Below are positions 279-57,035 of a stretch of 57,172 nt of DNA, one piece after another (the first letter of the stretch is position 1; each line of letters opens with the position of its first letter). The DNA is from Actinomycetes bacterium (GTDB lineage Bacteria > Actinomycetota > Acidimicrobiia > Acidimicrobiales > JAKAOS01): positions 12,329 through 69,500 of the forward strand of contig JAJYWE010000009.1 in assembly GCA_021791675.1 (NCBI GenBank), in the 5' to 3' direction. Under the pieces are notes generated by a model. It did not search any database. It was not told the DNA's origin and saw only the letters and a list, made by a program, of their open reading frames with translations. Both the position numbers and the translations under genes were made by a program.

Positions 279-560
279 GTCGCCTGGCATGCCCACCCGA
301 TCCGATCTCGTGGTTCGGGCGCGCAGGGGCCGGAAATGTCCTCCCCATCGGCGAGCGCAGGGGTAGGGTGTTCTCACCAGAGAAAGGAGGTGGTCCAACT
401 GCATAGTCAACGTCGCGGGACCCTGGAGGTGGCTGGCCGCTAGCGCGGCTCGCTGGACCCCTGGCGAATCCCATCCAGGCACCGCCCGTCTCGGTGATCG
501 GGAGCTGGTCCCACCCGACGCCTCTCATCGAACGGGTCCTTTCCAGTGCATTCGCAGAAA

Positions 561-4362: not shown

Positions 4363-4878
4363 ATGCCGACAGGACCAGCACGCGAGCGCGAAGGGCGGCC
4401 GGGCGGTCTCGGGCGCGCCAGCGGCCGAGGGGCCGAGCCGCCCGCGTCGTCGGTCTGGACGGACGGCGCCTGTCTCGGGAACCCGGGTCCGGGCGGGTGG
4501 GCGTGGGCGCTCCCGGGAGGGGCGTGGGCATCCGGTGCAGAGCCAGCCACCACCAACCAGCGCATGGAGCTCCGTGCGGCGCTCGAGGCACTGCTCGCGC
4601 TCCCGGACGTGGCCGAGGTCGTGAGCGACTCGACCTACGTCGTCAACTGCTTCCGACAGCGCTGGTGGGCTGGTTGGGAGCGACGAGGGTGGCGGAACAC
4701 CAAGAACGAGCCCGTCGCGAACCAGGACCTGTGGCGACCGCTCCTCGAGACCGCGTTACCGCGAGGGATCGAGTGGCGATGGGTGAAGGGTCACGCGGGC
4801 AACGCGATGAACGAGCTGGTGGATCGCCTGGCAAACGAGGCCGCCCGGACGGGACGGGGAGGCACCGGCACCTGCTGA
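4363..4878 (+). CDS. rnhA: ribonuclease HI
   Basis: WTDGACLGNPGPGGWAWAL, NQRMELRAALEAL, SDSTYVVN and WVKGHAGNAMNELVDRLA match RNase H type 1. Start is uncertain because the N-terminal ~30 aa are low complexity. Confidence 0.85.
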   Translation: MPTGPAREREGRPGGLGRASGRGAEPPASSVWTDGACLGNPGPGGWAWALPGGAWASGAEPATTNQRMELRAALEALLALPDVAEVVSDSTYVVNCFRQRWWAGWERRGWRNTKNEPVANQDLWRPLLETALPRGIEWRWVKGHAGNAMNELVDRLANEAARTGRGGTGTC

Positions 4879-4985
4879 GCCCGCCGAACGGTGCCTCGGC
4901 GACCAGCTGAGCCCGCCCGACGGTGCCTCGGCACCTGCTGAGCCCGCCGAACGGCACCGCGGCGACCAGCTCAGTCGGCTCCCTC
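4861..4985. repeat. 31-32-bp tandem repeat (about 3.3 units) at the rnhA / thioesterase convergent junction
   Basis: ctgagcccgcc(g/c)(a)acggtgcctcggc recurs, with ctgagc at 4875, 4907 and 4938, plus a degenerate 4th unit cagctcagtcgg. Contains dyads such as GGTGCC-TC-GGCACC (4922-4935). Confidence 0.8.
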
Positions 4986-33514: not shown

Positions 33515-34357
33515 CTAGAGCGCCGCGAGCAGCCGGCGGAGGGCCGCGAGGTCGACCACCGCCGTGCCGGCAGTCGCTACGTCGCCGGCCCGGGCGAAGA
33601 CGCCGTGGGGATCCGCGCGGACGGACGCGGGGCGGTCCGGCTCGCCGAGGCCGTCCAGCACCAGCGGCGCCGACGTCACCTCCTCGAAGCGGGTCTCGTC
33701 GTTGCCGGTGACGACGCAGGCGATGCCCGCCGCCGTCGCCGCGGCGAGCCCGGGGCCCGAGTCCTCGATGGCGACCACGGCCGCCGGGTCCGCCTCGAGC
33801 CTGTCCAGCGCGAGCAGGTAGGCGCTCGGGTCGGGCTTGAGGATCGAGACCTCCCGGTTGGTGACGACGACGGCGAAGCGGCCCGGGCCGAAGTGACCTG
33901 CGAGGAGGGGCTCGACCCACTCCGGGCTCCCGGTCGTGACCACCCCGAGGCGGATCCCCGCCGAGGTGAGCTCGTCGACGAGGCGACGGACACCGGCCCG
34001 CAGCGGGATCCGACCGGCCAGCACCATCGCCTGGAAACGCTCGGTCTTCACCCGGTGGAGCCGCTTCGCGAGCGCAGGCCAGTCCGCCTCGGCGACCGGT
34101 GCGGACCCGGCCGCGCTCCGGGCGGTGGCGAAGTAGTGGAGCAGCCGGGCCTCCCCACCGGTGACGGCGAGGAGCTCCCGGTAGTGGGGGACGTCCCAGC
34201 GATCGGGGAGCCCTGCCTCCGCGAAGGCCTCGTTGAAGGCGACGCGATGGCCGTCGCGCTCGCTGTCGACCAGCGTGCCGTCCACGTCGAACAGCACCGC
34301 CGACATCTTCCCCCGGGCTCGGGCGGGGCCCGTCGCTCCTCCCACCTCGACCGTCAT
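33515..34357 (-). CDS. HAD-superfamily hydrolase (CbbY-like)
   Basis: LFDVDGTLVDSE (motif I) and VAIEDSGPGLAAATAAG (motif III/IV). ATG 34357 is in frame in track ORF 33515-34714; ATG 34306 is an alternative. Confidence 0.82.
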   Translation of the reverse strand: MTVEVGGATGPARARGKMSAVLFDVDGTLVDSERDGHRVAFNEAFAEAGLPDRWDVPHYRELLAVTGGEARLLHYFATARSAAGSAPVAEADWPALAKRLHRVKTERFQAMVLAGRIPLRAGVRRLVDELTSAGIRLGVVTTGSPEWVEPLLAGHFGPGRFAVVVTNREVSILKPDPSAYLLALDRLEADPAAVVAIEDSGPGLAAATAAGIACVVTGNDETRFEEVTSAPLVLDGLGEPDRPASVRADPHGVFARAGDVATAGTAVVDLAALRRLLAAL

Positions 34358-34475
34358 GGTGCCGCCCCCGCGGTCTTCGCGCGCCGCTCCTCCGCCGGCC
34401 GCGGCGTGAGTCGCTCGGGTCGAGGCGTGGGTCGCTCGGCCGACGGGGTGCGTCGCCACAGTGCGAGGCGACTGC

Positions 34476-35213
34476 TCACGGCGCCGCACCCGGTGGGGGC
34501 AGGTCTCGCAGGTCGAGCACGCTCCCCGACGCAAAGCCAGCGTCCACGACCCCCCAGATCCGTGCTGCCACCTCGTCTGGATCCGCGAGCCGTCCCTGCT
34601 CGTGGAGCCGGACGAAGCGCTCCCGGGCGGGGAACGACGCTTCGGGCGTCGCGCGGAGGCGCTCCTGCATGGCCGTCGCGACGACCCCGGGCGCCACCGC
34701 GAGCACGACCGCACCGTCGCGAGCGGCTTCCTCGGCGCCCGCGGTCCGGCACCACTGGTCGACCGCCGCCTTGCCAGCGCCGTAAGAGGACCAGCCCGGG
34801 TACACCGTGTGCGCGGCCCCCGACGTGAGGAGGACGAGGTCCCGGCGAAGCGGGAGGCCGGCCGTCGCCGCGAGGAATGCCTGGCCGATCACCTGCGGCG
34901 CCGCTGCGTTGAGGAGGACGTTCCGGGTGTACGCGGCGGGATCCACCTCGCGGGCGAAGCCCACCGGGTCGAGGCTCCCCGCCGCGTGGACGAGGACCAC
35001 CCGGCTCTGGCTCCCACCTGCCACGCGCCGAGCGACATCCCGGGCGAGAACGGCCCACCCCTCTTCGGTCGCGAGGTCCGCAGGAAGGTGCGCACAGCCG
35101 CTCGGCGCCCGGCGGGCGACGCCGATGACCTCGGCGTCCGACCACGGCAGCGTCCGCACGAGCGCCGCGCCGATGCCGCTCGACGCGCCGGTGATCCAGA
35201 CGAGAGCCCCCAT
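34476..35213 (-). CDS. SDR family oxidoreductase
   Basis: ITGASSGIGAAL and SSYGAGKAAVDQW (YxxxK). Confidence 0.85.
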   Translation of the reverse strand: MGALVWITGASSGIGAALVRTLPWSDAEVIGVARRAPSGCAHLPADLATEEGWAVLARDVARRVAGGSQSRVVLVHAAGSLDPVGFAREVDPAAYTRNVLLNAAAPQVIGQAFLAATAGLPLRRDLVLLTSGAAHTVYPGWSSYGAGKAAVDQWCRTAGAEEAARDGAVVLAVAPGVVATAMQERLRATPEASFPARERFVRLHEQGRLADPDEVAARIWGVVDAGFASGSVLDLRDLPPPGAAP

Positions 35214-35232
35214 GAGCCGGCGAGCCTAACGC

Positions 35233-35465
35233 CGCCTCTTCGCGGCGCTACCGCCCGTGAACGCCGAGCGTCCTCGCCGGCCAGCGAGCCGGCAGCGCTT
35301 CGTCGACTGTCGGGTTGGCGGGGACGTCTGGTTGCCGCCGAGTCCGGCAGGTGGCTCGCTCGCGGTCACGCGCCGTCGAGTTCGCGAGCCGGAGTGACTC
35401 GGGGCGCGGACCCAACTACCGCTCGATGGCTCCGGCCGGCGCGCGCAGCGTGTGACCGGCCGTTG
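35233..35465. repeat. left copy of a ~230-bp direct repeat flanking the sugar cassette
   Basis: Core 35290-35426 aligns without gaps to 42813-42949, with about 108/137 identities by hand count. Similarity continues on both sides with small indels. Confidence 0.85.
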
Positions 35466-35470
35466 CTTGC

Positions 35471-35482
35471 CCTACAACGTTA
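35471..35482. promoter_or_regulatory. copy of a 12-nt AACGTT-centred motif (candidate LacI-type operator)
   Basis: ctacaacgttag is the reverse complement (11/12) of ctaacgttgtac at 36799-36810. Confidence 0.35.
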
Positions 35483-35574
35483 GATGCGGCTTCGGGGTGC
35501 TCGTACCAGGTGTCGCACTGGTCCAGCGCCGTCCTGGCCGGCCCCCCAAGCGTCAAGGTCGCCCGCCATCGCGT

Positions 35575-36660
35575 TCAGCGCTTGCCGCGACCGGCGGTGC
35601 TCTCTCGGACGATGAGCCGATGGGGTGCCAGGACGTCCCTGGGACCTGCACTCCCGAGCCCACCCGAACCGCCTCCGGCCGGCGTGCCCTCCAGAGCGCC
35701 AGACCCCTTGGCCGTCCGCTCCTCGAGTCGAGTGCCGAGCAGGTCCATGGCCAGTCGCGCGATGTGCTCCTTGTCCGGGGAGACGGTGGTGAGCGAAGGG
35801 GCGGAGTAGCGCCCATCCTCGATGTCGTCGAAGCCGACCACGGCGATGTCCTCCGGAACCCGCAGGTCCCGGTCGTAGCAAGCTCGGAGGGCACCGAGAG
35901 CAAGGAGGTCGCTGAAGGCGAAGACGGCGTCAGGCGGAGGCTCGAGGGCCATCAACCGCGCCATCCCGGCGGCCCCGTCATGGCGATGGAAGTCGCGAAC
36001 CTCTGCCACGAGCTCGCTGCGAAACGGCAGCCCGGCCGCCTCCAGCCCCTCTCGGTAGCCAGCCAGGCGCAGCCGAGCGTTCTCACCCTTCGCGGAGCGA
36101 ATGGCGCCGAGGGCAGCGATCCGGGTCCGGCCGAGGGCTGCGAGGTGCAGGACCGCCTCCCGAGCAGCTGCCACGTTGTCGATGGCCACGTGGTCCATGG
36201 AGCCCGCTTCCACCCGCTCCCCGAGAAGAACCATCGGTGTCCGGTCCTGGCGCCGAGCCAACTCATCCTGGCCCAACGCGAGCGGCGAGAAGATCACTCC
36301 GTCGATCAGGTGGGGGCGGATACCCTCGAGCACCAGGCGCTCCCGATCGGGGAGCCCCTCGGTCTGGTCGACGAGGACGGTGAACCCTCGCAGGCCCGCC
36401 GCCCGCACCACGGATTGGGAGAGCTCGGCGAAGTAGGGGACCGCCAGCTCGGGGACGGCGAGGGCGATGATCCCCGAGCGGCCGCCCCGCAGGCTGCGGG
36501 CGGAGAGGTTCGGTCGGTAGTCGAGCGCGGCGACCGCCTCTTCCACCCGCGCGCGGGTGGCCGGGGAGACATGGGCGTAGCCATTGACGACGTTGGAGAC
36601 GGTCTTGATGGACACGCCGGCGCGAATGGCGACTTCTTGGAGCCTGGCGGGCACGCTCAC
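35575..36660 (-). CDS. LacI family transcriptional regulator
   Basis: N-terminal HTH LQEVAIRAGVSIKTVSNVVNG plus a periplasmic-binding-protein-like sugar-binding core. GTG start at 36660. Confidence 0.9.
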   Translation of the reverse strand: MSVPARLQEVAIRAGVSIKTVSNVVNGYAHVSPATRARVEEAVAALDYRPNLSARSLRGGRSGIIALAVPELAVPYFAELSQSVVRAAGLRGFTVLVDQTEGLPDRERLVLEGIRPHLIDGVIFSPLALGQDELARRQDRTPMVLLGERVEAGSMDHVAIDNVAAAREAVLHLAALGRTRIAALGAIRSAKGENARLRLAGYREGLEAAGLPFRSELVAEVRDFHRHDGAAGMARLMALEPPPDAVFAFSDLLALGALRACYDRDLRVPEDIAVVGFDDIEDGRYSAPSLTTVSPDKEHIARLAMDLLGTRLEERTAKGSGALEGTPAGGGSGGLGSAGPRDVLAPHRLIVRESTAGRGKR

Positions 36661-36776
36661 CGTCCTTTCCGGTCCTCCCTCGGCGCCAAGGGTACCCTGC
36701 TCGTGGGGGAGAGTGTGTGTCTCGGGAGTGGATCACCGGCATGGTGACGCCGTCCGGCCCGGTGCGAAGAAGGGGC

Positions 36777-36810
36777 TTGACAACCAGCGTGGAACTTTCT
36801 AACGTTGTAC
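36777..36810 (+). promoter_or_regulatory. candidate sigma-70-type promoter with an overlapping operator-like motif
   Basis: TTGACA (36777-36782), a 17-nt spacer, then TAACGT (36800-36805). ctaacgttgtac (36799-36810) overlaps the -10. It lies 165-170 nt upstream of the SBP start. Confidence 0.45.
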
Positions 36811-36974
36811 AACTCGGACGAACCGGGCGAGAGGGCCTGGAACGGCGCTCGTCCAGATCGGAGTTCGGCGGAGCTTCGGGTCAGGCCGCCGTTCGGACAA
36901 CGGGCCGTCGATCGTCGCCCCATGCAACGTGGGCTGGCGATCACGCTCCGGACCCGCGAAACGAAAGGGGAACC

Positions 36975-38327
36975 ATGGGCAAGCAGAGTCGCCGAGGGGT
37001 GGCCGCGGTGTTGGCCCTGGGCATGCTCACGGCAGCGTGTGCATCGACCAAGTCCGCGACCACGCCAGAGACCTCCTCGAGCTCGGCCAGCTCCACCACG
37101 ACCTCGACCATTGCCGCCGGGGCGTATCACGGCGGCATCAAGATCAGCTACGAGGGGTTCGGCTCCTTCGCCGGCGTGCAGCAGGTGGTGGCCGCATTCA
37201 ACAAGAAGTACAGCGGGAAGTACTACGTGTCGGCGACGGCGGTCCCGTACACCCAGTATGCCGCTCTTCTCTCCTCCGCCCTCTCGTCCCACACTGCGCC
37301 GGACATCTTCTCGGGGTCGTTCACCCCCTCCGTCTACTACACCAGGCTCGGCCTCACCGAGCCGATCACACCCATCCTGGAGGATGGAGGCATCAACCCC
37401 TCGGCGGACTTCCCGGCGAGCGAGTGGAACGCCAAGCTCACGGTGAATGGCGTCCACTACGCAGCCCCTCAGGCAGCGTTCGGTACGGCGCTCTTCTGGA
37501 ACAAGCAGCTGTTCGCCAAGGCAGGCTTGAATCCGAACTCCCCGCCCAAGACCGGGGCGCAGGTCATCGCCGACGCAGAGGCGTTGAAGAAGGCCGGGGT
37601 GAAGTATCCGATCATCCTCGGTGTCGGCAAGGGAACACAGGACTTCTTGTACCCCAGCTTGGTCTATCAGTTCGGTGGGAAGATGGGCAACCCGAGCACC
37701 TGTGCCGCGCTCTTCAACTCGACCGCAGGCGCCAAGGCACTTGCCTGGGAGAAGAGCCTCATCTACACCTACCACGTGGCTCCCGTGGGTCCGTCCACGA
37801 ACGAGGACCTGGCGCAGTTCACTGCGGGGACCGAGGGGATGACGATCCTTCCAGCGATCGACCAGGGAACGTTCCTCAAGTCGATGAGCGAGAAGAAGTT
37901 CGGCACCGATCCATTGCCGGAGATCGGGAACAACCGGGCGGACTTCCTGGGCCAGAACTACATCTGGGTCTTCAAGAACGCTTCCGACAGTGCCAGCAAG
38001 CTGAAGGGCATCGGACTCTTCCTCGGCATGCTCTACCGGGACAGCTCGGTCGCCTTGGCTGTTCAAGGCGGTGTCGTGCCCTCCTACAAGCCAGTCCTCA
38101 CCGACTCGCAGGTCACGAGCGGGCCCTACTTCCAGGAGCAGGACGCGATGGTCCACACGGGGGTGCTGAATCCTGCCATCCCGAACTGGGGGACGGTGAC
38201 GGCAGTCCCGTTGTATGACTACGTGGAGAACGCGCTGCTGAACCGCCAGTCCATCAGTGCTGCCCTGGCCGAGGCAGAGGTCAAGACGAACGAGCTCACG
38301 TCAACCCTGCCCGGCTGCACGAAGTGA
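36975..38327 (+). CDS. sugar ABC transporter substrate-binding lipoprotein
   Basis: ATG 36975 follows GAAAGGGGAA. Signal plus lipobox GMLTAAC, and extracellular solute-binding family 1-like sequence. Confidence 0.85.
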   Translation: MGKQSRRGVAAVLALGMLTAACASTKSATTPETSSSSASSTTTSTIAAGAYHGGIKISYEGFGSFAGVQQVVAAFNKKYSGKYYVSATAVPYTQYAALLSSALSSHTAPDIFSGSFTPSVYYTRLGLTEPITPILEDGGINPSADFPASEWNAKLTVNGVHYAAPQAAFGTALFWNKQLFAKAGLNPNSPPKTGAQVIADAEALKKAGVKYPIILGVGKGTQDFLYPSLVYQFGGKMGNPSTCAALFNSTAGAKALAWEKSLIYTYHVAPVGPSTNEDLAQFTAGTEGMTILPAIDQGTFLKSMSEKKFGTDPLPEIGNNRADFLGQNYIWVFKNASDSASKLKGIGLFLGMLYRDSSVALAVQGGVVPSYKPVLTDSQVTSGPYFQEQDAMVHTGVLNPAIPNWGTVTAVPLYDYVENALLNRQSISAALAEAEVKTNELTSTLPGCTK

Positions 38328-38635
38328 GCGCCACTCGGTGAGCTCCGAGATGGCTCGGCATCGAGCGCCGTGTCTTCTCGAGCGTGGCCGCGGGCCATCG
38401 CGAGTCCGGTGTCCCCGGGAGTCGGGCCGTGCGGCTCTCACCCCGGCCGCCAGCAGTCCGCCGGCTGGGCCAGTCGAGGGAGAGTTGACCGCCAGGGCGG
38501 GGTTTCCGGGCCAGTCGGGCGACCGGAGCTCGGGCCCGGGGAGGGTGAGCGGTGTGGTCTGGCGACCGGCACCGGGGACGACAGGAGAGACGGGGTGCCG
38601 AGGGGGAGAGGGGTGGTCGATGTGAGGACGAAGCC

Positions 38636-39589
38636 GTGAGCCTGCTCGAGCAAGTGGGGCCGGGCGCAGCTCCCGGATCTGGCGGGCCCGCTGTCGTGGC
38701 GAGGGTGGCACGGGCCAGCTCCAGGAGGAGGCTCCGACAGGACCTTGCGTCCTACCTCTTCCTGTCCCCCTACCTCCTCGCCTTCCTGGTCTTCACCGTG
38801 GTACCGGTGGGCTTCGGTATCTACGTGTCGCTCCACAAGTGGAGTGAGGTGTCCGGCGACCAGGGCTTCGTCGGGCTCGGGAACTACGCGGCACTGCTGT
38901 CCGGGAAGGGCTACTACGGCAGCGAGTTCTTCGAGAGCATGGCGAACACGCTCATCTTCGTCGTGATCTCGGTGCCCTTCCTCTGGGCTATTCCCACGAT
39001 ATTGGCTTACCTGGTGTCTCGCGCTCCAGCGAAGCCACTGTGGCGAATGCTGTTCTTCTATCCGGCCGTGTTCTCAGCGACCGCGTTCTCTACCGTCTGG
39101 AGCTATCTGCTCGCCACGAACGGTGGCTCGGTGAACACCCTGTTCCATGTGAACGTCCAGTGGCTGACGAGCCTTCCTGAGGCTTGGATCTCCCTCGACG
39201 TCGCGACGATCTGGGCCACCATGGGGTTCAACTTCATCATCATGTACGCAGGGGTGACCCAGGTACCGAAGTCGACGATGGAGGCGGCCGAGCTCGACGG
39301 CGCGGGGGCGTGGGCTCGACTCCGACGGGTTGTCTTACCCCAGCTCCGGCCGGTCTCGGTCGTCGTCGTCGTGATCAGCACCATCGCCTCGTTCAATCTC
39401 TTCGCCCAATCGTTGATCATGACCGGAGGAGGGCCGGGCACGTCGACAACGACCATTTCGATGGCGATCTACCAGGAGGCGTTCAACAGCTTCAACGCCG
39501 GCACGGCGACGGCGATGGCCTTCCTCTTGGCGATCGTGCTCGCGGTCATCGCCCTGGCTCAGTACCGGTTCGCCTTGAGGAGGAGTTGA
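38636..39589 (+). CDS. sugar ABC transporter permease (MalF-like)
   Basis: YLFLSPYLLAFLVF and the EAA-loop region EAAELDGAGAWARLRRVVLPQL. Start uncertain; GTG 38636 is in frame in track ORF 38552-39589. Confidence 0.85.
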   Translation: MSLLEQVGPGAAPGSGGPAVVARVARASSRRRLRQDLASYLFLSPYLLAFLVFTVVPVGFGIYVSLHKWSEVSGDQGFVGLGNYAALLSGKGYYGSEFFESMANTLIFVVISVPFLWAIPTILAYLVSRAPAKPLWRMLFFYPAVFSATAFSTVWSYLLATNGGSVNTLFHVNVQWLTSLPEAWISLDVATIWATMGFNFIIMYAGVTQVPKSTMEAAELDGAGAWARLRRVVLPQLRPVSVVVVVISTIASFNLFAQSLIMTGGGPGTSTTTISMAIYQEAFNSFNAGTATAMAFLLAIVLAVIALAQYRFALRRS

Positions 39590-39590
39590 G

Positions 39591-40499
39591 ATGGCCACCG
39601 ATCTCTCGACTGCGCCCGCCCGTGACGAAGGATCGCCCGCTCGGGTCGCGTCACCGACTATCCACCGTCGGCGCCTTCGACCGAGCAAGGTCGCGCTCGT
39701 CGGGAGCCTGGCCGTGGTCGGGCTCGTCATGCTCTTCCCCGCGCTCTGGGTCCTCACGACCGCCTTTGCACCGCGAACCGAGCAAGCGAGCGGGGCCATC
39801 ATCCCGGCGGCGCTGTCGCTCTACAACTTCCACTTCCTGTTCTCACTCCCGGCCAACGAATACCCGGTCTTGCGTTGGCTGGAGAACTCGATCGGCGTGT
39901 CGGCGGTTGCCGCCGTTGCCGTGGCGACGATAGACTCACTGGCTGCCTTTGCCCTGGCTCGCCTGAACTTCCGAGGGCAGAAGGTGATGTTCTACATCGT
40001 CATCAGCTCACTCATGGTGCCGTTCATCGCGATCCTTCTCCCGCTCTACCTCGAGTTCTCGAAGCTTGGGCTCCTGAATACGTATGGAGCATTGATTCTC
40101 CCATATACCTCCAACGCCTTCGGTATCTTTCTTCTCTATCAATTCTTCCGGGCGGTCCCCCAGGAGCTCCAGGATGCAGCCGTCGCCGACGGCGCCACGC
40201 GCTTCGACCTCTGGAGGAAGATCTTCTTGCCCTTGAGCCTCTCCATAACGGTGACACTGGCTCTGCTCACGTTCATGAACGTCTACAATGACTTCTTCTG
40301 GCCGCTCGTCTCTACCTCTTCGGCCTCTATGCGGACCATAACGGTGGGTATAGAACTGACGACGGTGGGACAGTACACGACCAACTACACCGCCCTCATG
40401 GCCCTGACGGTGTTCTCGGTGATTCCGATGCTCTTGGCCTTCGTATTCGCCCAGAGGCGTCTGGTGGAGGGTATCAGCTTTGCTGGTATCACTGGCTGA
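39591..40499 (+). CDS. sugar ABC transporter permease (MalG-like)
   Basis: ATG lies 1 nt after the upstream stop. EAA-loop region DAAVADGATRFDLWRKIFLPL. The 3' half is markedly AT-richer (40081-40140 has 27/60 G+C). Confidence 0.88.
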   Translation: MATDLSTAPARDEGSPARVASPTIHRRRLRPSKVALVGSLAVVGLVMLFPALWVLTTAFAPRTEQASGAIIPAALSLYNFHFLFSLPANEYPVLRWLENSIGVSAVAAVAVATIDSLAAFALARLNFRGQKVMFYIVISSLMVPFIAILLPLYLEFSKLGLLNTYGALILPYTSNAFGIFLLYQFFRAVPQELQDAAVADGATRFDLWRKIFLPLSLSITVTLALLTFMNVYNDFFWPLVSTSSASMRTITVGIELTTVGQYTTNYTALMALTVFSVIPMLLAFVFAQRRLVEGISFAGITG

Positions 40500-40546
40500 G
40501 CCGGCGTAGCCGACAGTCAAGGGCAAGCGGCGAGGAAGGGAGCAAC

Positions 40547-42559
40547 GTGTCGCCAGAAGACCTCGATCGCGTCGTCGAAGCCGGCTATCCACGGCCGCAA
40601 ATGGTGCGCAACGAGTGGGTTCCGCTCGACGGGGAGTGGGGGTTCGCCTTCGATGATCGAGGGGTCGGTCGCGAGGAACGGTGGTGGGATGGCCGATCGG
40701 ACCCCTTCGACCGCAGGATCGTGGTCCCGTATCCGCCGGAGTCGGAGCTGTCCGGCGTCGGGGAGCGGGGGTTCCACCCGGTCGTGTGGTACCGGCGAGC
40801 CGCCCCCGTCCCGGTCCGGGAAGTGGGCGAGCGCCTCCTGCTCCACTTCGGGGCGGTGGACTACCGAGCGACCGTTTGGGTGAACGGCGTCCTCGTCGGC
40901 AGTCACGAGGGAGGCCACACTTCCTTCGAGCTCGACGCGAGCGACGCGGTGCCTCCGGCCGCCGCGCCCCGGCCCGCTGCGACGACGGTCTCGGGGGGGG
41001 CGACCCCTCCGGATCGCAGCACCGCCATCATCGTCGTCCGGGCCGAGGACGATCCCGAGGACGTCCACCAGCCGAGGGGGAAGCAGGACTGGCGAGCCAC
41101 CCCCCACCGGATCTGGTATCACCGGACGACGGGTATCTGGCAGCCCGTCTGGTGGGAAGTCGTCCCCCGTTGCCACATCCAGGAGCTCACGTGGGAGGTC
41201 AGCACGGACACGGCCACCGTGCTCGCGACGGTGGCGCTCTCCATCCCCCCTCCCCGTGGGTCGCGACTCCGCCTGCGGCTGTGGCACGGATCCGAACTGC
41301 TGGCCGATCACTCCCAGGTCGCGCGCGGGCGTCACCACTCCTTGCGCGTGAGCGTGCCCGCGGCCGAGAACGCCTGGGATGTCGAGCGCCTCGAGTGGTC
41401 GCCCGCCTCACCGACGCTGCTCGGCGCGCAGGTCGAGCTGGCCCACGCGGGCAACGAACGTGGCGACGGCGCCGAGGCGAGCACTGCCCTCCTCGACAGC
41501 GTCGACTCCTATCTCGGCTGGCGTCGTGTCGCCGCCACGGAAGGGCGCTTCTTGTTGAACGGCCGGCCGCAGTTCCTCCGCATGGCCCTGGCGCAGGGAT
41601 ACTGGCGCGAGTCGCACCTCGCGGCTCCGAGCGGGGCTGATCTCCGTCGGGAAGTGGAGCTCGCCATCCGGTTGGGCTTCAACGGGGTGCGGGTACACCA
41701 GAAGGTGGAGGATCCGAGGTTTCTGTACTGGGCGGACCGGCTCGGGCTGATGGTGTGGGAGGAGATGCCGAGCGCCGGGGCATTCTCCGAGCGTGCCGCC
41801 CGGCGTCTCCTTGCGGAGTGGCAGGAGGTGGTGCGCCGGGACCGTAGCCACCCCTGTATCACCGCCTGGGTGCCGCTCAACGAGAGTTGGGGCGTGCCCG
41901 CCCTCGCCGACCAGCCGGCCCAGCGCCACCTCGCGGCGTCGCTCTACCACCTGACGCACGCGCTCGACCCCACTCGGCCCGTGATCTCGAACGACGGATG
42001 GGAGCACGTCGACAGCGACATCTGGACCGTCCACGACTACACCCCGAGTGGCGCCAGCATCCGCGAGCGCTACGGCGACCGCCGGGCGGTCACGACCACC
42101 CTGGCGGAGCGCTGGCCAGGACCCAGGCGTCTGGTGCTTGCCGGGGCGCCCGAGCGTGGCCAGCCCGTCATGCTCACGGAGTTCGGTGGGTTCACCTACT
42201 CCCCGGCCGGCGATCACGCGTGGCTGGCGTACGGGACCGTCCAGTCCGCCGACGAGTTCGCGAACAGGCTCGCCGAACTGTTCGGCGCAGTGGCCGACTC
42301 GGAGGCGCTGGCCGGCTTCTGCTACACCCAGCTCACCGATACCGAGCAGGAGCAGAACGGCCTCCTCTTCGCAGATCGGCGCCCAAAGCTCCCCTTTGAA
42401 CAGGTCAAGGCTCTCGTGAATCGGCCCTCTCGGGCGATCCCGGCCGAGGAGGTGGCTGCCGCCCGTCGGCCCCCGTCCCACCCCTGGGACGGCGCCAGCC
42501 CTCGGCCGGATGCCGACTCGCCGAGCGCTGGCTCGAGCTCAGGTCGCCTGCCGGGCTGA
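40547..42559 (+). CDS. glycoside hydrolase family 2 protein
   Basis: GH2 sugar-binding block LHFGAVDYRATVWVNGVLVGSHEGGHTSFELD. TIM-barrel acid/base WVPLNESWG and nucleophile region VMLTEFGG. Confidence 0.85.
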   Translation: MSPEDLDRVVEAGYPRPQMVRNEWVPLDGEWGFAFDDRGVGREERWWDGRSDPFDRRIVVPYPPESELSGVGERGFHPVVWYRRAAPVPVREVGERLLLHFGAVDYRATVWVNGVLVGSHEGGHTSFELDASDAVPPAAAPRPAATTVSGGATPPDRSTAIIVVRAEDDPEDVHQPRGKQDWRATPHRIWYHRTTGIWQPVWWEVVPRCHIQELTWEVSTDTATVLATVALSIPPPRGSRLRLRLWHGSELLADHSQVARGRHHSLRVSVPAAENAWDVERLEWSPASPTLLGAQVELAHAGNERGDGAEASTALLDSVDSYLGWRRVAATEGRFLLNGRPQFLRMALAQGYWRESHLAAPSGADLRREVELAIRLGFNGVRVHQKVEDPRFLYWADRLGLMVWEEMPSAGAFSERAARRLLAEWQEVVRRDRSHPCITAWVPLNESWGVPALADQPAQRHLAASLYHLTHALDPTRPVISNDGWEHVDSDIWTVHDYTPSGASIRERYGDRRAVTTTLAERWPGPRRLVLAGAPERGQPVMLTEFGGFTYSPAGDHAWLAYGTVQSADEFANRLAELFGAVADSEALAGFCYTQLTDTEQEQNGLLFADRRPKLPFEQVKALVNRPSRAIPAEEVAAARRPPSHPWDGASPRPDADSPSAGSSSGRLPG

Positions 42560-42735
42560 GGTGGGTGCGGCTCTCCTCCCGCGGCCGAGAGTGGGCGAGG
42601 CATGGCAGCCGGAGTGCTCGATGCCGGGCCACGCCGACTTGCGGGAAGAGCGAACCGGCCCAGCCCAACGCAGCGGAGCGCTCCGAAGGACCGCTGGAGG
42701 GCGCTGACCTCTCCGGAGTGGACTGGGCCCGATCA

Positions 42736-42990
42736 CCTCTTGCCGAGGCGCTCCCCGGGGCCCACCTGCGCATCGGACTGCACATCCGAGCGCCCCCGCC
42801 GGCCCGCGAACGGGCAGCGCTTCGTCGACTCTCGGGTCCGCTGGCACGTCCGGTCGCTGCAGACTCTGCCGGCTGGCGCGCTCGCGGTCAGGCGCCGTTC
42901 GCTCCTCGAGCAGGCGTGACCCGAGGAGCGGACCCACCCACCGCTCGATCCCTCGTGCCGGTGCTCGTGGCGGAGCGTGACCTGGCTCGG
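42736..42990. repeat. right copy of the ~230-bp direct repeat flanking the sugar cassette
   Basis: See 35233-35465. Same orientation, with cores 7523 bp apart. Confidence 0.85.
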
Positions 42991-43111
42991 TGAGTGGGGG
43001 GCTCGTAGCGTGGCCTCTTCCGCAGTCCGAGAGGCTCGCCGTTCGCCTCCCGTCGCCGGCTCGAGCCGCGACGGGAGACTGACGGCCTCGCCCGAGTGAG
43101 AGGAGGATGGG

Positions 43112-43570
43112 ATGTCGTCAGACGAGGGAGGAGTTCGTCCCGAGGAGGGGACGGCCGGAGGGAGTGCGAGCGCAGGGTCGGACCCGACGGGCTCGCTCGT
43201 CGACCTGGCGCTTCCGCAGAGCCGCCTCGACAAGGCGCTCCAGCGCGTGCCGCAGGTGCTCGCGAGCAAGCCACACGTGATCCTGCTCATGGTGCTCGGG
43301 ATCTACCTGGTCGTGCTGCCGTTGTTCGGGGTCAAGGTGAGCGCGGGGGCGGAGCTGATCGGCGGGAACTACACCAACGTCACGAGTGACATCGGTGCCT
43401 GCATCGCGGCCGGCGGCACGCTCCACCTGGTGCGCCAGTCCAAGCAGCGTCACCGGATGGAGGCCGAGCGGCTCCGCCTCGCCCGCGAGACGCACCGGCT
43501 CCTGCACCGTGCCCATCCGGAGCTCGCACGGGAGCTCGGTCAGGAGCCGGACCCCGGTGCGGGCGACTGA
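43112..43570 (+). CDS. small membrane protein, unknown function
   Basis: ATG 43112 follows GAGAGGAGGA. Two predicted TM segments (HVILLMVLGIYLVVLPLFGV, DIGACIAAGGTLHLV) and an Arg-rich helical tail. Confidence 0.55.
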   Translation: MSSDEGGVRPEEGTAGGSASAGSDPTGSLVDLALPQSRLDKALQRVPQVLASKPHVILLMVLGIYLVVLPLFGVKVSAGAELIGGNYTNVTSDIGACIAAGGTLHLVRQSKQRHRMEAERLRLARETHRLLHRAHPELARELGQEPDPGAGD

Positions 43571-47401: not shown

Positions 47402-47591
47402 GGAACGACCCTACCGACGCCGCTGACGCTGCAACGGTCGGCGCGTCCGACCTGGACGGTGAGGACTCGTGACAGGGAGCACTGACTCAGCTAGGCTTCC
47501 TTCGCCAAGGGCGGGCCGGCAGTGCCGCGCGCGCCGGCCGGGCCAGAACGCGCTGTCCCCGCCGAGGTCGGGCGGGACCGACTGCGAGGAG

Positions 47592-49040
47592 ATGCCTGTG
47601 CAGCTTCGCCACCTAGCGGCGGTGGCTTCCGTGGTTGCGATCGGGCTCGTCGTCGCCGAGGCGGCGGTGCCGTCTGCGAGCGGTTCGAGCCGAGGCCCGA
47701 GCCTCGCGACCGAGAAGGCCGAGGCGACCCGGCTCGCGAGCGAGCTCCAGCTCACGAGCAGTCGGATCGCGTCGCTGAACCGGACCTACGTGGGAGCCGA
47801 GATTGCCGCACGCCACGACAGCGAAGCGGCTGCGGCGAGCGGCCGCCTGGTCGCCGCAGACCGTCGCGCGGTGGCCGCGGCTGCGGTCGGGGTGCGCGCG
47901 CTCGCGACCGCGGCCTGGGAGTCCGGAGGCTCCTCGCTCGGCCTGATCGAGCAGCTCCTCGAGGTCACCGCACCGGGCTACGAGCTCCGCCTCGGGCTCC
48001 TCGAGTCCGCAGGGGCCTCCGAGCAGGCGGTGCTCGCGCACTGGGAGACCGCAGAGCGCCACCTCGCCACGGCGCACGCGCGCCTCGTCTCCGAGGAGCG
48101 CTCCGCCGACGCCGAGCTTCTCCGGGCTGAGCACGCGCTCAGCGGCGCCGAGGTCCAGGCGCAGGACCTCCAGCGCACGCTGGCCCAGGTCCACGGCACG
48201 ATGGCGAGGCTCGTGGCCGCCCAGCTCGCGGCGCAGGAAGCGCGGGCCGCACGCGCCGCGCGTGCTCGACACGCCGCCCTCGACCACGCGCCGGGCGCGC
48301 GCCGAACCGTCCTCCCGCGGGGCGCGACGCGGCCCACGACGAAGCGAACGACGAGGCGGACGACTGTGACGACGGCCCCGCCGGGGCCGCCCTCCGCCCC
48401 GGTCCCGACCACGGCGCCGCCGACGACCACCCCGCCGACGACGACCCCGCCGACCACGGCGCCGCCGACGACCACCCCGCCGACGACCACTCCGCCGACC
48501 ACGGCGCCCCCGACGACATCTCCCCCGACGACGCTGCCGGCGCCCCCACCCCCGAGTGGCTACGCCAACCCGCTGCGCTCGCTCGCAGCGCTGTACCCCG
48601 AGCGGATCGACCAGGGCGTGGACTACTCGGCCCTCGGCGACATCTATCCGATCGGCAACGGGGTCGTCCTCAACACCGTGAACGGCGGGTGGCCGAACGG
48701 GACCTTCATCACCTACCAGCTCCAAGACGGCCCGGCCGCCGGCCTCATCGTCTACGCGGCCGAGGACATCCAGCCGCTCGTGCAGGTCGGGCAGGAAGTC
48801 ACGCCCTCGACGCCGCTCGGGGTGGTCTTCGAGGGCGGGAGCGGCATCGAGACGGGTTGGGCCGCACCTCCGGGGAACGGCTACACCATGGCCGCGGAGG
48901 CGGGCCAGTTCGACGGGTCGAACTCCACGGCCTTCGGCGCCAACTTCTCCCAGCTCCTCGTCTCGCTCGGCGCACCGGGCGGGATCCTCCAGAACAACCC
49001 GCCGACGGGAAGCCTGCCGGCGGGCTGGCCGACCTGGTAA
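47592..49040 (+). CDS. secreted coiled-coil protein with C-terminal LytM/M23-like domain lacking the catalytic His residues
   Basis: ATG 47592 follows GAGGAG. Signal-like LAAVASVVAIGLVVAEAAVPSASG, ~230 aa of heptad-like Ala/Glu/Arg/Leu sequence and a PTT-rich linker. The C-terminal block is DQGVDYSALGDIYPIGNGVV...VQVGQEVTPSTPLGVV. Confidence 0.6.
   Translation: MPVQLRHLAAVASVVAIGLVVAEAAVPSASGSSRGPSLATEKAEATRLASELQLTSSRIASLNRTYVGAEIAARHDSEAAAASGRLVAADRRAVAAAAVGVRALATAAWESGGSSLGLIEQLLEVTAPGYELRLGLLESAGASEQAVLAHWETAERHLATAHARLVSEERSADAELLRAEHALSGAEVQAQDLQRTLAQVHGTMARLVAAQLAAQEARAARAARARHAALDHAPGARRTVLPRGATRPTTKRTTRRTTVTTAPPGPPSAPVPTTAPPTTTPPTTTPPTTAPPTTTPPTTTPPTTAPPTTSPPTTLPAPPPPSGYANPLRSLAALYPERIDQGVDYSALGDIYPIGNGVVLNTVNGGWPNGTFITYQLQDGPAAGLIVYAAEDIQPLVQVGQEVTPSTPLGVVFEGGSGIETGWAAPPGNGYTMAAEAGQFDGSNSTAFGANFSQLLVSLGAPGGILQNNPPTGSLPAGWPTW
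48417..48535. repeat. 45-bp tandem repeat x2 plus a partial unit, encoding the PPTTTPPTTTPPTTA linker
   Basis: Units at 48417-48461 and 48462-48506, nearly identical. Confidence 0.8.
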
Positions 49041-55241: not shown

Positions 55242-57035
55242 GTGGTGCTGAGGCAACGGGGCAGCCGGATCAGCGCGCCCCGTTGGCGGGGCCTGCGCGT
55301 GCGCTGGGCACGCGCGCCCCGGTGGGGGCAACGCCGACCCGCTCGCCGCTCGGCGGGGCCGGTCGCACTCGCGCTGCTCGGCGTCGCCTCGCTGGCCCTC
55401 GCAGTCGTGGCTGCGCCCGCCGTGCCGGCGGGCGCCGAGGCGATGTCGGCGACCGCGTTGACGAGCCCGGCGTGGGTGCTCTCCTGGGGATCTGCGATGG
55501 CATGGCGTCAGGCGCCGGTCGCGGACCTCACGGTTCGCCAGGTGGTGCCCCTCTCCGTCGGCGGGGACCAGGTCCGGGTGCAGCTCTCGAACCTCTTCGG
55601 CGACGAGCCGCTGGTGGTCGGCGCAGCCACCGTTGCCGTCCAACAGCGCGGCGCCGCGGTCGTGCCCGGGTCGGTGCGGTCGCTCTCCTTCGGCGGTGGC
55701 GCCGCCGGCGTCACCGTGCCGGTCGGCGGGGTCGCCGAGAGCGGTCCGCTCGCCTACCCGGTGCATGCGGGCGAGTCCCTCGAGGTGAGTGTCTACGTCT
55801 CCGGCCCGGACCTCGTCACGGCACACTACGACGCCGGGCCGCTCTCGTACTCGAGTCTCAGCTATGCCGGGAACCTCACGGAGGACACCTCGGGGGTCGG
55901 TCTCGTCTACGGCACGACCTGGGCGCGCTGGGTGAGCGCCGTCGACGTCGCCGGGGGAGCCACGCCGCCGGAGGCCACCGTCGTGCTCGGGGACTCGATC
56001 AGCGACGGGTTCAACATCCACTGCCCCACCAGTCTCTGCGACCTCGTGACACCCTGGCCGGACGTGCTCGCCGAGCGAATGCGCTCGCTCCCCGCGGCGG
56101 AGCGGGTCGGGGTCGCCGACGAGTCGATCACCGCCAACACCCTGACCCTGGTGGACACGGCGAAGGCGGCCGACTTCCGCGCCGGCGGCGGGGGCCCTCC
56201 AGGGGTCGAGCGCGTCGACATGGACGCACTCGAACAGCCCGGGGTGAACCGGCTGGTCCTCTTGCTCGGGACGAACGATCTCTGGTTCGGGGCGACCGCT
56301 TCCCAGGTGATCGCCGGGATGCGGCAGATCCTCGCCGATGCCGCGGCGGCCCACGTCGGTGTGATCGGCGTCACGCTCCTGCCGCGCGAGGGGAGCCAGG
56401 GCTGGACGGCGAGCGACGAGGTGCAGCTCCAAGCCGTCAACCACTGGATCCTCACCTCCAAGGCCTTCCCGGTCGTGTTGGACCTGGCGGCTGTGGTCGG
56501 GGACGTCTACGACGGTGCCTGCAACCCCAACGCGCTCTACCCGCCGTACAACTCCGGGGACTTCCTCCATCCGGACCAGGCCGGCCAGATCGCCATGGCC
56601 GACGCGGTGCCGACCCGCCTGCTCGGGGCGGGCGCGGCGCCGCCGGTCCGGCCCCTGGTGGCGGTCACGCCGACCAAGGCCTGCGCCCACCCACCCGTGG
56701 TGCTGGTCAACCACGCATTCCCGGCCGACAGCCCCTCACCGACGACCGGGGCGCCGACCACCACGACTACCGCCCCCACGACGACGACCACGACCGCCCC
56801 GAGCACGACGACGACGCTGGCGCCTACCACCACGACCCCGCCCGCCACCGAGACGAGCTCGACGGGCCTGGTTGCGAGCCTGCTCGGGCGTGACGCGTGG
56901 GTGCTCGTCCTCGCGCTCGTCGTGATCGCTCTCGCCGTGGCGATTGCCATCGGTCGCGCCGCAGGGAGACGAGGACGCCATCGCCAGGGGGCGGGCAGCT
57001 CGCGCTCCCGTGGGGGCCCTGGGCCGCCGACGTAG
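55242..57035 (+). CDS. SGNH/GDSL hydrolase, secreted with a C-terminal Thr/Pro linker and TM anchor
   Basis: Signal-like VALALLGVASLALAVVAAPAVPAGAEA. Block I VVLGDSISDG, block III LLLGTNDL and block V DFLHPD. A TTTTAPTTTTT linker precedes the hydrophobic WVLVLALVVIALAVAIAIG. Start uncertain (GTG 55242). Confidence 0.8.
   Translation: MVLRQRGSRISAPRWRGLRVRWARAPRWGQRRPARRSAGPVALALLGVASLALAVVAAPAVPAGAEAMSATALTSPAWVLSWGSAMAWRQAPVADLTVRQVVPLSVGGDQVRVQLSNLFGDEPLVVGAATVAVQQRGAAVVPGSVRSLSFGGGAAGVTVPVGGVAESGPLAYPVHAGESLEVSVYVSGPDLVTAHYDAGPLSYSSLSYAGNLTEDTSGVGLVYGTTWARWVSAVDVAGGATPPEATVVLGDSISDGFNIHCPTSLCDLVTPWPDVLAERMRSLPAAERVGVADESITANTLTLVDTAKAADFRAGGGGPPGVERVDMDALEQPGVNRLVLLLGTNDLWFGATASQVIAGMRQILADAAAAHVGVIGVTLLPREGSQGWTASDEVQLQAVNHWILTSKAFPVVLDLAAVVGDVYDGACNPNALYPPYNSGDFLHPDQAGQIAMADAVPTRLLGAGAAPPVRPLVAVTPTKACAHPPVVLVNHAFPADSPSPTTGAPTTTTTAPTTTTTTAPSTTTTLAPTTTTPPATETSSTGLVASLLGRDAWVLVLALVVIALAVAIAIGRAAGRRGRHRQGAGSSRSRGGPGPPT

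Follow-up and report, generated by a model that had tools for sequence, protein, structure and literature searches.

In recombination hotspots, accessory islets that contain no mobile elements are gained and lost through double homologous recombination in the core genes on either side, and recombination with empty alleles can remove them (Oliveira et al. 2017, PMC5635113). Here we analyze a 7,764-bp sugar-use islet in a 57,172-nucleotide stretch of contig JAJYWE010000009.1 from an Actinomycetes bacterium; this whole stretch is called the window below. The islet resembles the described ones in its presence or absence between conserved neighbours, the lack of an integrase or transposase, the mosaic recombined flanks, the deviant composition and a strain-specific adaptive function (sugar use), whereas imperfect direct repeats of such length, one at each end of the insert, are not known as a feature of islets of this kind. 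Integrase islands and prophages with att repeats are similar in having direct repeats at both ends and a clean empty site in relatives. The islet differs from them, however, in that there is no recombinase, the repeats are about 250 bp long with 73-78% identity instead of forming a short exact core, the empty site has no copy, and the target is an intergenic G-run, not a tRNA or tmRNA gene or the 3' end of a gene. Another known class includes composite transposons and mobilisation units flanked by directly repeated copies of insertion sequences (IS) or miniature inverted-repeat transposable elements (MITE), e.g., IS26 units and MITE-flanked integron units. The likeness is that a short non-coding element stands in direct orientation on each side of the cargo, and that the cargo includes no transposase; the islet differs in having no inverted termini or target-site duplication, and in that its copies are far from identical and no others were found. 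Finally, terminal redundancy is known from concatemer-derived insertions and amplification junctions, which contain more than one unit of circular or tandem DNA. As in those insertions, the two ends are homologous right up to the boundaries of the insert and no further, with a unit of 7,522 bp and an overlap of ~250 bp; in contrast, the copies of the islet are now 22-27% diverged, and a circular or tandem form was not seen.

Using exact-protein look-ups in metagenomes from mine drainage, tailings and sediment, we collected related contigs, and more of them were obtained via variants of the SDR oxidoreductase and of the 152-aa protein encoded on the two sides of the islet. The inserted DNA (35232-42995) lies in the intergenic region between these two divergent genes, at a G-run beside an 8-bp tandem array. 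Two contigs (L046 and L047) encode an identical 152-aa protein, and the SDR gene adjoins it at a distance of 216 bp, without the cassette. Other empty sites are present in L136 (allele E1, the lineage of L046 and L047), L133 (allele E2, with a 158-bp intergenic region), L138, L463 and L464 (allele D), and L137 (allele D'). The intergenic length of the empty sites is 158-216 bp, and these alleles come from five flank haplotypes. A contig of run X9 joins position 35230 to position 43001, with 7,770 bases skipped and AGGCA between them. An earlier note on this DNA, made from the window alone, had proposed that the cassette is an insertion and had predicted an empty site in which the SDR gene, starting at 35213 on the minus strand, stands directly beside the gene starting at 43112 on the plus strand and the mutase genes; both gene starts are as claimed, and the predicted arrangement exists in all five flank haplotypes.

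The empty intergenic regions have a common order: ...GAGCCTAAC, a G-rich run, (C)TAGCGTGGCC, the 8-bp tandem array of 5-11 units, and CGCCGTTCGCCTCCC... This native DNA is cleanly split in the window, with CCTAACG extending to 35231 and GGGGGG-CTCGTAGCGTGGCC starting from 42996. There is no target-site duplication: the left junction CCTAACG|CCGCC... and the right junction ...GTGAGT|GGGGGG have at most one G in common. Alignments and a repeat-profile search detected zero copies of the repeat in the empty alleles E1, E2, D and D'. Since the empty alleles have no repeat copy and the target was not duplicated, the repeats entered as terminal parts of the inserted DNA; thus, both ~240-260-bp repeats are the termini of the cargo, not a duplicated target. 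The 8-bp array itself is strain-variable: in the empty alleles, it consists of 5-11 units of CCGCAGTG or GCCGTCCG at ~25 nt from the insertion point (for example, 1347-1435 in L462 and 5868-5953 in L046), and about one unit is found in the window at 43019-43035.

These data bear on the origin suggested in the earlier note, namely that a once-single SDR/43112 intergenic region was duplicated by Campbell-type integration. Under this model, a single resident repeat copy would undergo one crossover with a circular element carrying a homologous segment, and the repeat would be duplicated. Direct repeats that bound the cassette exactly, and relatives with an empty site at this very position, are what such an event would produce. 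However, every empty site, in all five flank haplotypes including D, contains zero copies of the repeat, not one, and the native intergenic DNA was split without duplication. In addition, no joint with a solo repeat (a skip of 7,522 bases) was detected in the contigs of runs that were aligned across the whole islet. These results contradict the Campbell model, which we consider highly improbable.

The direct repeat is real. The two segments are non-coding and have the same orientation, and positions 35264-35450 and 42786-42972 align without gaps with 145 of 187 bases identical (78%) at an offset of 7,522. For comparison, random 187-nt pairs drawn from the window share 56 +/- 8 bases with a maximum of 91 (300,000 pairs), and the second-best direct match in an exhaustive ungapped scan of the whole window, located in low-complexity DNA, has 109 of 187. 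The homology of the two segments had been recognized in the earlier note, with right-hand coordinates that were one base too high (an offset of 7,523): the core 35290-35426 matches 42812-42948 at 107 of 137 positions, but 42813-42949 at only 24 of 137. Weaker similarity had been traced to roughly 35233-35465 and 42736-42990, close to the computed gapped homology of 35232-35470 and 42735-42995, in which three indels are required and 174 of 239 aligned bases are identical (22 gap columns). The homology stops exactly at 35232 and 42995, the first and the last bases of the insert. The Jukes-Cantor divergence (K) of the pair is 0.34 for the full gapped alignment and 0.27 for the ungapped core. The longest block identical between the left (DR-L) and the right (DR-R) repeats is 18 nt, and recombination between them should be rare.

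There are exactly two copies of the repeat in the window (a repeat search and the ungapped scan), and two in each of eight metagenome runs (contigs with at least 80% likeness); outside the window, this count rests on metagenome contigs, without a complete genome of the lineage, and a distant third copy is possible. An nhmmer profile detected no third copy among the retrieved loci (~4 Mb, in which seed hits from the genome and viral collections were included), and blastn revealed no relatives in plasmids or phages. Collection scans for conserved blocks (GCGCTTCGTCGAC-N40-60-CTCGCGGTCA, an 18-mer and a 16-mer) returned chance matches only, in GC-rich genomes and viral contigs. A generic repeat of the many-copy, REP-like kind, which the earlier note had named as the outcome that would speak against its reading, is not what the counts of two copies indicate. 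The same counts bear on a composite transposon, in which the repeats would be two MITE- or IS-derived copies around the operon. The geometry is right for it, with a direct repeat at each end and cargo between, but no terminal inverted repeats or target-site duplication were detected, the copies are just 78% identical, and there are no additional copies in the window, the metagenome contigs or the searched collections; this explanation is scarcely credible.

A second filled allele provides a measure of age. The sister islet S (L220) is 83% identical overall to the islet of the window (W), with 61-74% identity in third codon positions. The intergenic DNA of W and S is 68-69% identical with many gaps, and K of the orthologous non-coding DNA is 0.39-0.42. 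Islet S occupies the same left junction: CCTAAC|CCGGCCTCTCCGCGCCGTC in L139 versus CCTAAC|GCCGCCTCTTCGCGGCGCTAC in the window. Because the left junctions are homologous, S and W may stem from one insertion. The first 19 nt known of the left end of S resemble the start of DR-L at ~15 of 21 positions (hand alignment), i.e., roughly at the neutral level of the W-S comparison. Searching with the C-terminus of the LacI protein for the ends of S yielded distant fragments only, and variants of the 152-aa protein pointed to contigs that are either of the W type or empty.

The islet is a strain-variable accessory block without mobility genes. We give about an even chance to the reading that its repeats are a decaying, functionless terminal redundancy that results from the capture of more than one unit. 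In this simplest origin by a single event, a tandemly duplicated or circular/concatemeric copy of the operon would have supplied slightly more than one unit, 7,522 bp with ~250 bp in excess. The captured DNA would have been joined by illegitimate end-joining at a repeat-rich and probably fragile spot, consisting of the G/C run and the 8-bp array, and after the capture both repeat copies would have drifted apart at about the neutral rate. Capture of more than one unit would necessarily make the two ends match up to the insert boundaries and not beyond. The age roughly fits, as the K of 0.27-0.34 between the repeats is near the K of 0.39-0.42 for orthologous non-coding DNA of W and S.

Several points weigh against this reading. 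The origin from one unit and a bit is what we infer from geometry and age only. Contig searches detected neither a source locus nor a tandem or circular junction in which 42995 is joined to 35471; for this joint, the contigs of four runs are weak evidence, as Logan contigs drop rare variants. If S comes from the same insertion, the repeats should have diverged at least as much as the W-S non-coding DNA, whereas the actual values are 0.27-0.34 versus 0.39-0.42. Furthermore, the gap between the SDR and lacI genes is 970 nt in S versus 339 nt in the window, and a later rearrangement of the left end is possible. The slightly lower divergence of the repeats and the different left end of S leave room for a W-specific duplication or early gene conversion or, less likely, for an element mobilised in trans.

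A duplication restricted to the W lineage would imply that the second repeat arose after the insertion, through a tandem duplication of the islet followed by a deletion, a template switch or a similar rearrangement that copied one end of the islet to the other; alternatively, gene conversion would keep the pair similar. The slightly lower divergence of the pair compared to the W-S orthologous non-coding DNA and the different architecture of the left end of S (970 versus 339 nt) are consistent with it. At three DR-R sites (42812, 42842 and 42912), near-identical strains (L222; runs X9, X10, X13 and X14) have the base of DR-L and the window differs. These shared bases also agree with such an origin, but they are interspersed with retained differences and do not form a conversion tract; probably, they are recent point changes in the DR-R of the window. 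A W-only duplication also requires that two new junctions coincide with the ends of the islet, and the resemblance of the first 19 nt of S to the start of DR-L at an approximately neutral W-S level speaks against it. We regard this explanation as unlikely.

Neutral drift of the repeats is suggested by variation among strains. Between near-identical strains, there are 8 single-nucleotide polymorphisms (SNPs) in ~260 nt of DR-R and 3 in ~240 nt of DR-L. The rest of the non-coding DNA in the islet has a similar density, and the islet coding DNA has a far lower one (~0.4%). The repeats appear to drift neutrally, without sign of selection. Another possibility is that the repeats are functional: selection would maintain both copies of a structured RNA, leader or regulatory module, such as a leader of the flanking genes under LacI control. 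The absence of indels from the 187-nt core is in line with this possibility. A motif that resembles an operator lies next to DR-L and points towards the SDR gene, and on the minus strand each copy would lie downstream of a possible leftward promoter region. However, the left copy has no Rfam match and the right copy has chance-level matches only (E 0.4-6), at the gathering threshold and at E <= 10. The stability of folds compared to shuffled sequences gives z = -1.6, -0.9, +0.9 and -0.4, the minimum-free-energy folds differ between the copies, and consensus folds of the repeats, made from two sequences only, are uninformative. The ends of the two copies have no terminal inverted repeats in corresponding places, and neither a consensus promoter nor a terminator was detected in the repeats. 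The orientation is also inconsistent: the SDR gene reads DR-L on the minus strand, whereas DR-R faces the 152-aa gene on the plus strand. Together with the neutral SNP density, this leaves a functional role of the repeats rather improbable. A coding relic or small open reading frame (ORF) in the repeat was rejected: mismatches are distributed by phase as 19/9/14 (not significant), no frame has a synonymous excess, and the single open frame has the lowest G+C content at third codon positions (GC3), 0.63-0.68 compared to about 0.9 in the genes here.

The comparison of flanks suggests how this genome received the islet. The filled contigs (n = 17) are 99.6-100% identical to the window. Most of the 29.4-53.6 kb segment of the window matches the empty-site strain L046 with 99-100% identity. 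The exceptions are 34309-35231, which includes the SDR gene and the end of the HAD gene and is only 65-89% identical, and the 300 bp that directly follow the islet on its right side (93%). The segment 34309-35008 is 97-100% identical to lineage D (L138), and 35009-35213 represents a further haplotype that is 90% identical to S, D and D'; the SDR gene of lineage D is 96.5% identical to that of the window overall and 99-100% over parts. The 152-aa gene shows the opposite affinity, with 99.8% nucleotide identity to the E1 empty-site strain versus 92% to D. Breakpoints are visible at ~34300 (a drop from 99-100% to 65-89% compared to L046) and at ~35009 (from 100% to 86-93% compared to L138); on the right, sequence comparison places the crossover into the E1-like backbone at ~43060-43100, with wider bounds of ~43060-43330. 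An E1-like backbone with divergent patches flanking the islet indicates that the islet was gained by double homologous recombination in the flanks. Thus, the window is an E1-like backbone, and the islet reached it with a left arm of ~1 kb and a right arm of ~80 bp. Filled and empty alleles are likewise shuffled among flank haplotypes, by crossovers close to the junction. The mode of acquisition had been left unexplained in the earlier note; for this genome, it is now accounted for by homologous recombination in the flanks, whereas the first entry into the site is what we infer.

Several other segments show patches of 86-94% identity or indels compared to L046 (31509-31808, 33303-33902, 44531-44830, 46031-46330 and 49031-49330), against a background of 99-100%, and this scatter points to frequent recombination along the whole region. 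In addition, at the point where the homology of L047 to the window stops (to the left of window position ~30314), positions 1-552 of L047 contain an ORF that encodes a group II intron maturase domain (GIIM); L047 may have a strain-specific group II intron ~5 kb to the left of the islet.

The flanks of S are relevant to one more explanation. Over 35009-35213, the flank of S is 99-100% identical to the empty flanks D and D'. Two positions distinguish S from D: 35208, which is ~23 nt away from the junction, and one within the 18-nt leader. Filled and empty alleles on near-identical flanks next to the junction would be expected if the islet were a non-autonomous mobile element, inserted and excised in a site-specific manner, with the repeats acting in cis and the recombinase or transposase supplied from another locus. 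The coincidence of the repeats with both ends of the insert, the clean empty sites, and the same left junction in islets W and S that are ~15% different are all in line with such an element. However, the mosaicism of flanks alone accounts for the shuffling of filled and empty alleles, and the S-D differences at 35208 and in the leader are consistent with a crossover near the junction. Moreover, no other copies, circular junction, inverted ends or target duplication were found, the repeats gather SNPs like neutral DNA, and their longest shared identical block is 18 nt. A mobile element of this kind is thus quite unlikely. Its most specific form, in which the repeats are the cis-acting ends of a new type of non-autonomous site-specific cassette that a recombinase encoded at another place in the genome inserts into, and precisely excises from, the G-run upstream of the SDR gene, is in our opinion very improbable; if true, it would explain both the common junction of W and S and the clean empty sites on near-identical flanks.

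The cargo is a LacI-type repressor, a CUT1-type ABC sugar importer consisting of a substrate-binding protein (SBP) and two permeases, and a GH2 glycosidase; these are the same five genes that had been listed for the interior in the earlier note, and Pfam and NCBIfam confirmed them. The best solved relative of the GH2 protein is the beta-glucuronidase PDB 7xyr (1e-90), followed by beta-D-galactofuranosidases (9j6n, 6e-55). Among LacI-regulated CUT1 ABC sugar operons of Actinomycetota, the locus is similar in its divergent lacI gene, SBP, two permeases and glycosidase, in a putative operator over the -10 element and in the lack of an ATPase gene. Shared MsiK-type ATPases are usual in Actinomycetota. 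The islet differs from these operons in having a second putative operator 1.3 kb away, downstream of lacI and facing the host gene. The nearest outside relatives of the LacI protein, named Trebonia or Streptosporangiaceae, are 66-69% identical, and these closest homologues have no linked orthologous transporter or GH2 genes; a source of the cassette was not found among them, in a metagenome scan that did not include the lineage of the window itself.

The interior is indeed less GC-rich than the rest of the window: G+C content is 0.63-0.67 in the 1-kb bins across 37-41 kb versus about 0.72-0.76 elsewhere, and 40081-40140 has 27 of 60 G+C, as counted in the earlier note. Per gene, the cassette has 0.60-0.71 (mean 0.66) compared to 0.72 +/- 0.03 in validated neighbouring genes. 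The GC3 is 0.79-0.87 (mean 0.84) in the cassette versus 0.90 +/- 0.03 in these neighbours. The difference, on which the earlier note had made its case depend, is significant when computed properly (Mann-Whitney p = 0.012). The shift is modest because the first and second codon positions of the SBP and permease genes account for much of the GC drop. It should be noted that this comparison uses validated genes, as a cruder set of ORFs with spurious frames blurs the GC3 difference. No recombinase, transposase or integrase was detected in the cassette or within 10 kb on either side (Pfam on the cassette ORFs and precomputed Pfam matches), and no tRNA is present in the islet or within 10 kb, in agreement with the earlier observation. 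The sole tRNA gene of the window, tRNA-Pro (CGG) at 56588-56668 (+), is 13.6 kb from the islet and unrelated to it.

There are two exact matches to the 12-mer TCTAACGTTGTA in the window, at 36798-36809 on the plus strand and at the inner edge of DR-L on the minus strand; no others appear with up to two mismatches, for which 0.15 would be expected. The copy at the SBP promoter overlaps the -10 element, whereas the other copy is located downstream of lacI, 1.3 kb away. The block TTGACA-17-TAACGT (36777-36805 in the window) is conserved between W and S within a spacer that is otherwise 69% identical. Based on this arrangement, the pair is probably a LacI operator pair, here called putative, or a captured control of the SDR and HAD genes. 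The insert cuts these two genes from their native promoter region, which is now 7.8 kb away. With the native promoter region displaced and a copy of TCTAACGTTGTA facing the SDR gene, the SDR and HAD genes may have come under the control of the islet LacI and may be transcribed from within the islet through DR-L. The route of expression would be either read-through from lacI or a promoter at the 35473-35484 site. Metatranscriptomes from the same study showed no coverage of this locus. Coordinates of all features of the locus are listed in Table 1.

Table 1. Features of the islet, its junctions and the adjacent host genes (window coordinates).
Feature	Position	Strand	Evidence or remarks
Left recombination arm, 3' end of HAD gene and SDR gene	34203..35231	.	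65-89% identical to L046; imported with the islet
SDR oxidoreductase gene, 245 aa	34476..35213	-	Pfam adh_short 3e-18; NCBIfam SDR family; HAD hydrolase gene downstream, same strand
Left junction CCTAAC G|C	35225..35232	.	18 bp upstream of SDR start codon; homology to empty alleles stops at 35230/35231
DR-L, left terminal direct repeat	35232..35470	+	Begins at insert base 1; core 35264-35450
Second operator-like 12-mer TCTAACGTTGTA (with TAACGT)	35473..35484	-	Exact match; inner edge of DR-L, facing DR-L and SDR gene
LacI-family repressor gene, 361 aa	35575..36660	-	Pfam LacI and Peripla_BP_3/1
Putative promoter/operator of transporter operon	36777..36809	+	TTGACA, 17 nt, TAACGT within TCTAACGTTGTA
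Sugar ABC transporter SBP, 450 aa	36975..38327	+	Pfam SBP_bac_1; PDB sugar-binding proteins 1e-11
ABC permease 1, 317 aa	38636..39589	+	BPD_transp_1; UgpA/GlcT-like (NCBIfam)
ABC permease 2, 302 aa	39591..40499	+	BPD_transp_1; UgpE/MalG-like (NCBIfam)
GH2 glycoside hydrolase, 670 aa, beta-glucuronidase / beta-D-galactofuranosidase-like	40547..42559	+	Pfam Glyco_hydro_2_N and _C
Islet-internal spacer, GH2 stop codon to DR-R	42560..42734	.	By alignment; no counterpart at left end; homology to DR-L begins at 42735
DR-R, right terminal direct repeat	42735..42995	+	Finishes at the final base of the insert; core 42786-42972
Right-junction G-run, piece of ancestral target	42996..43001	.	Empty sites here: CCTAAC-GGGGG... 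(E1), GGAGGGG (E2), AGGCAG (D)
Remaining native SDR/152-aa intergenic DNA	43002..43111	.	8-bp tandem array collapsed to about one unit
152-aa gene (small membrane protein in the earlier note)	43112..43570	+	No Pfam/NCBIfam match; first gene of the mutase operon
Methylmalonyl-CoA mutase, N-terminal/large domain protein, 526 aa	43610..45190	+	Pfam MM_CoA_mutase 5e-221; TIGR00641 1e-226

The best match of the 152-aa protein in the genome collection, which does not contain this genus, is 71% identical, and the neighbourhoods of distant homologues are not syntenic. Elsewhere in the window, the sole Rfam match above the gathering score is the actinobacterial small RNA Ms_IGR-5 at 376-543 (+), with 46.4 bits and E 2.5e-7; this match supports an actinobacterial origin of the window. 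Tandem repeats with a 51-nt period are found at 74-259 (three overlapping 84-nt copies, 80-82% identical), and repeats of about 31-32 nt in three copies at 4866-4979. Arrays with a 15-nt period, composed of CCGCCGACGACCACC-like units, are located at 48373-48525 and 56740-56868 and are reported inside an ORF called at 47469-49040; strains that are identical in other respects have arrays whose copy number differs by 18 nt.

Taken as a whole, this is a fairly ordinary accessory sugar-use islet in a recombining hotspot, and its terminal redundancy is unusual and probably functionless. The locus illustrates clearly how an operon for sugar use is gained and lost in nature by an uncultured actinobacterium of mine drainage, with no mobile-element machinery involved. 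Public metagenomes reveal the filled allele, a number of empty ones and the breakpoints of recombination. Direct repeats that flank a cassette need not be duplications of an attachment site; here they arrived with the cargo. If these repeats were active recombination sites, they would define a new type of mobile element, whereas the present evidence points to a decaying by-product.

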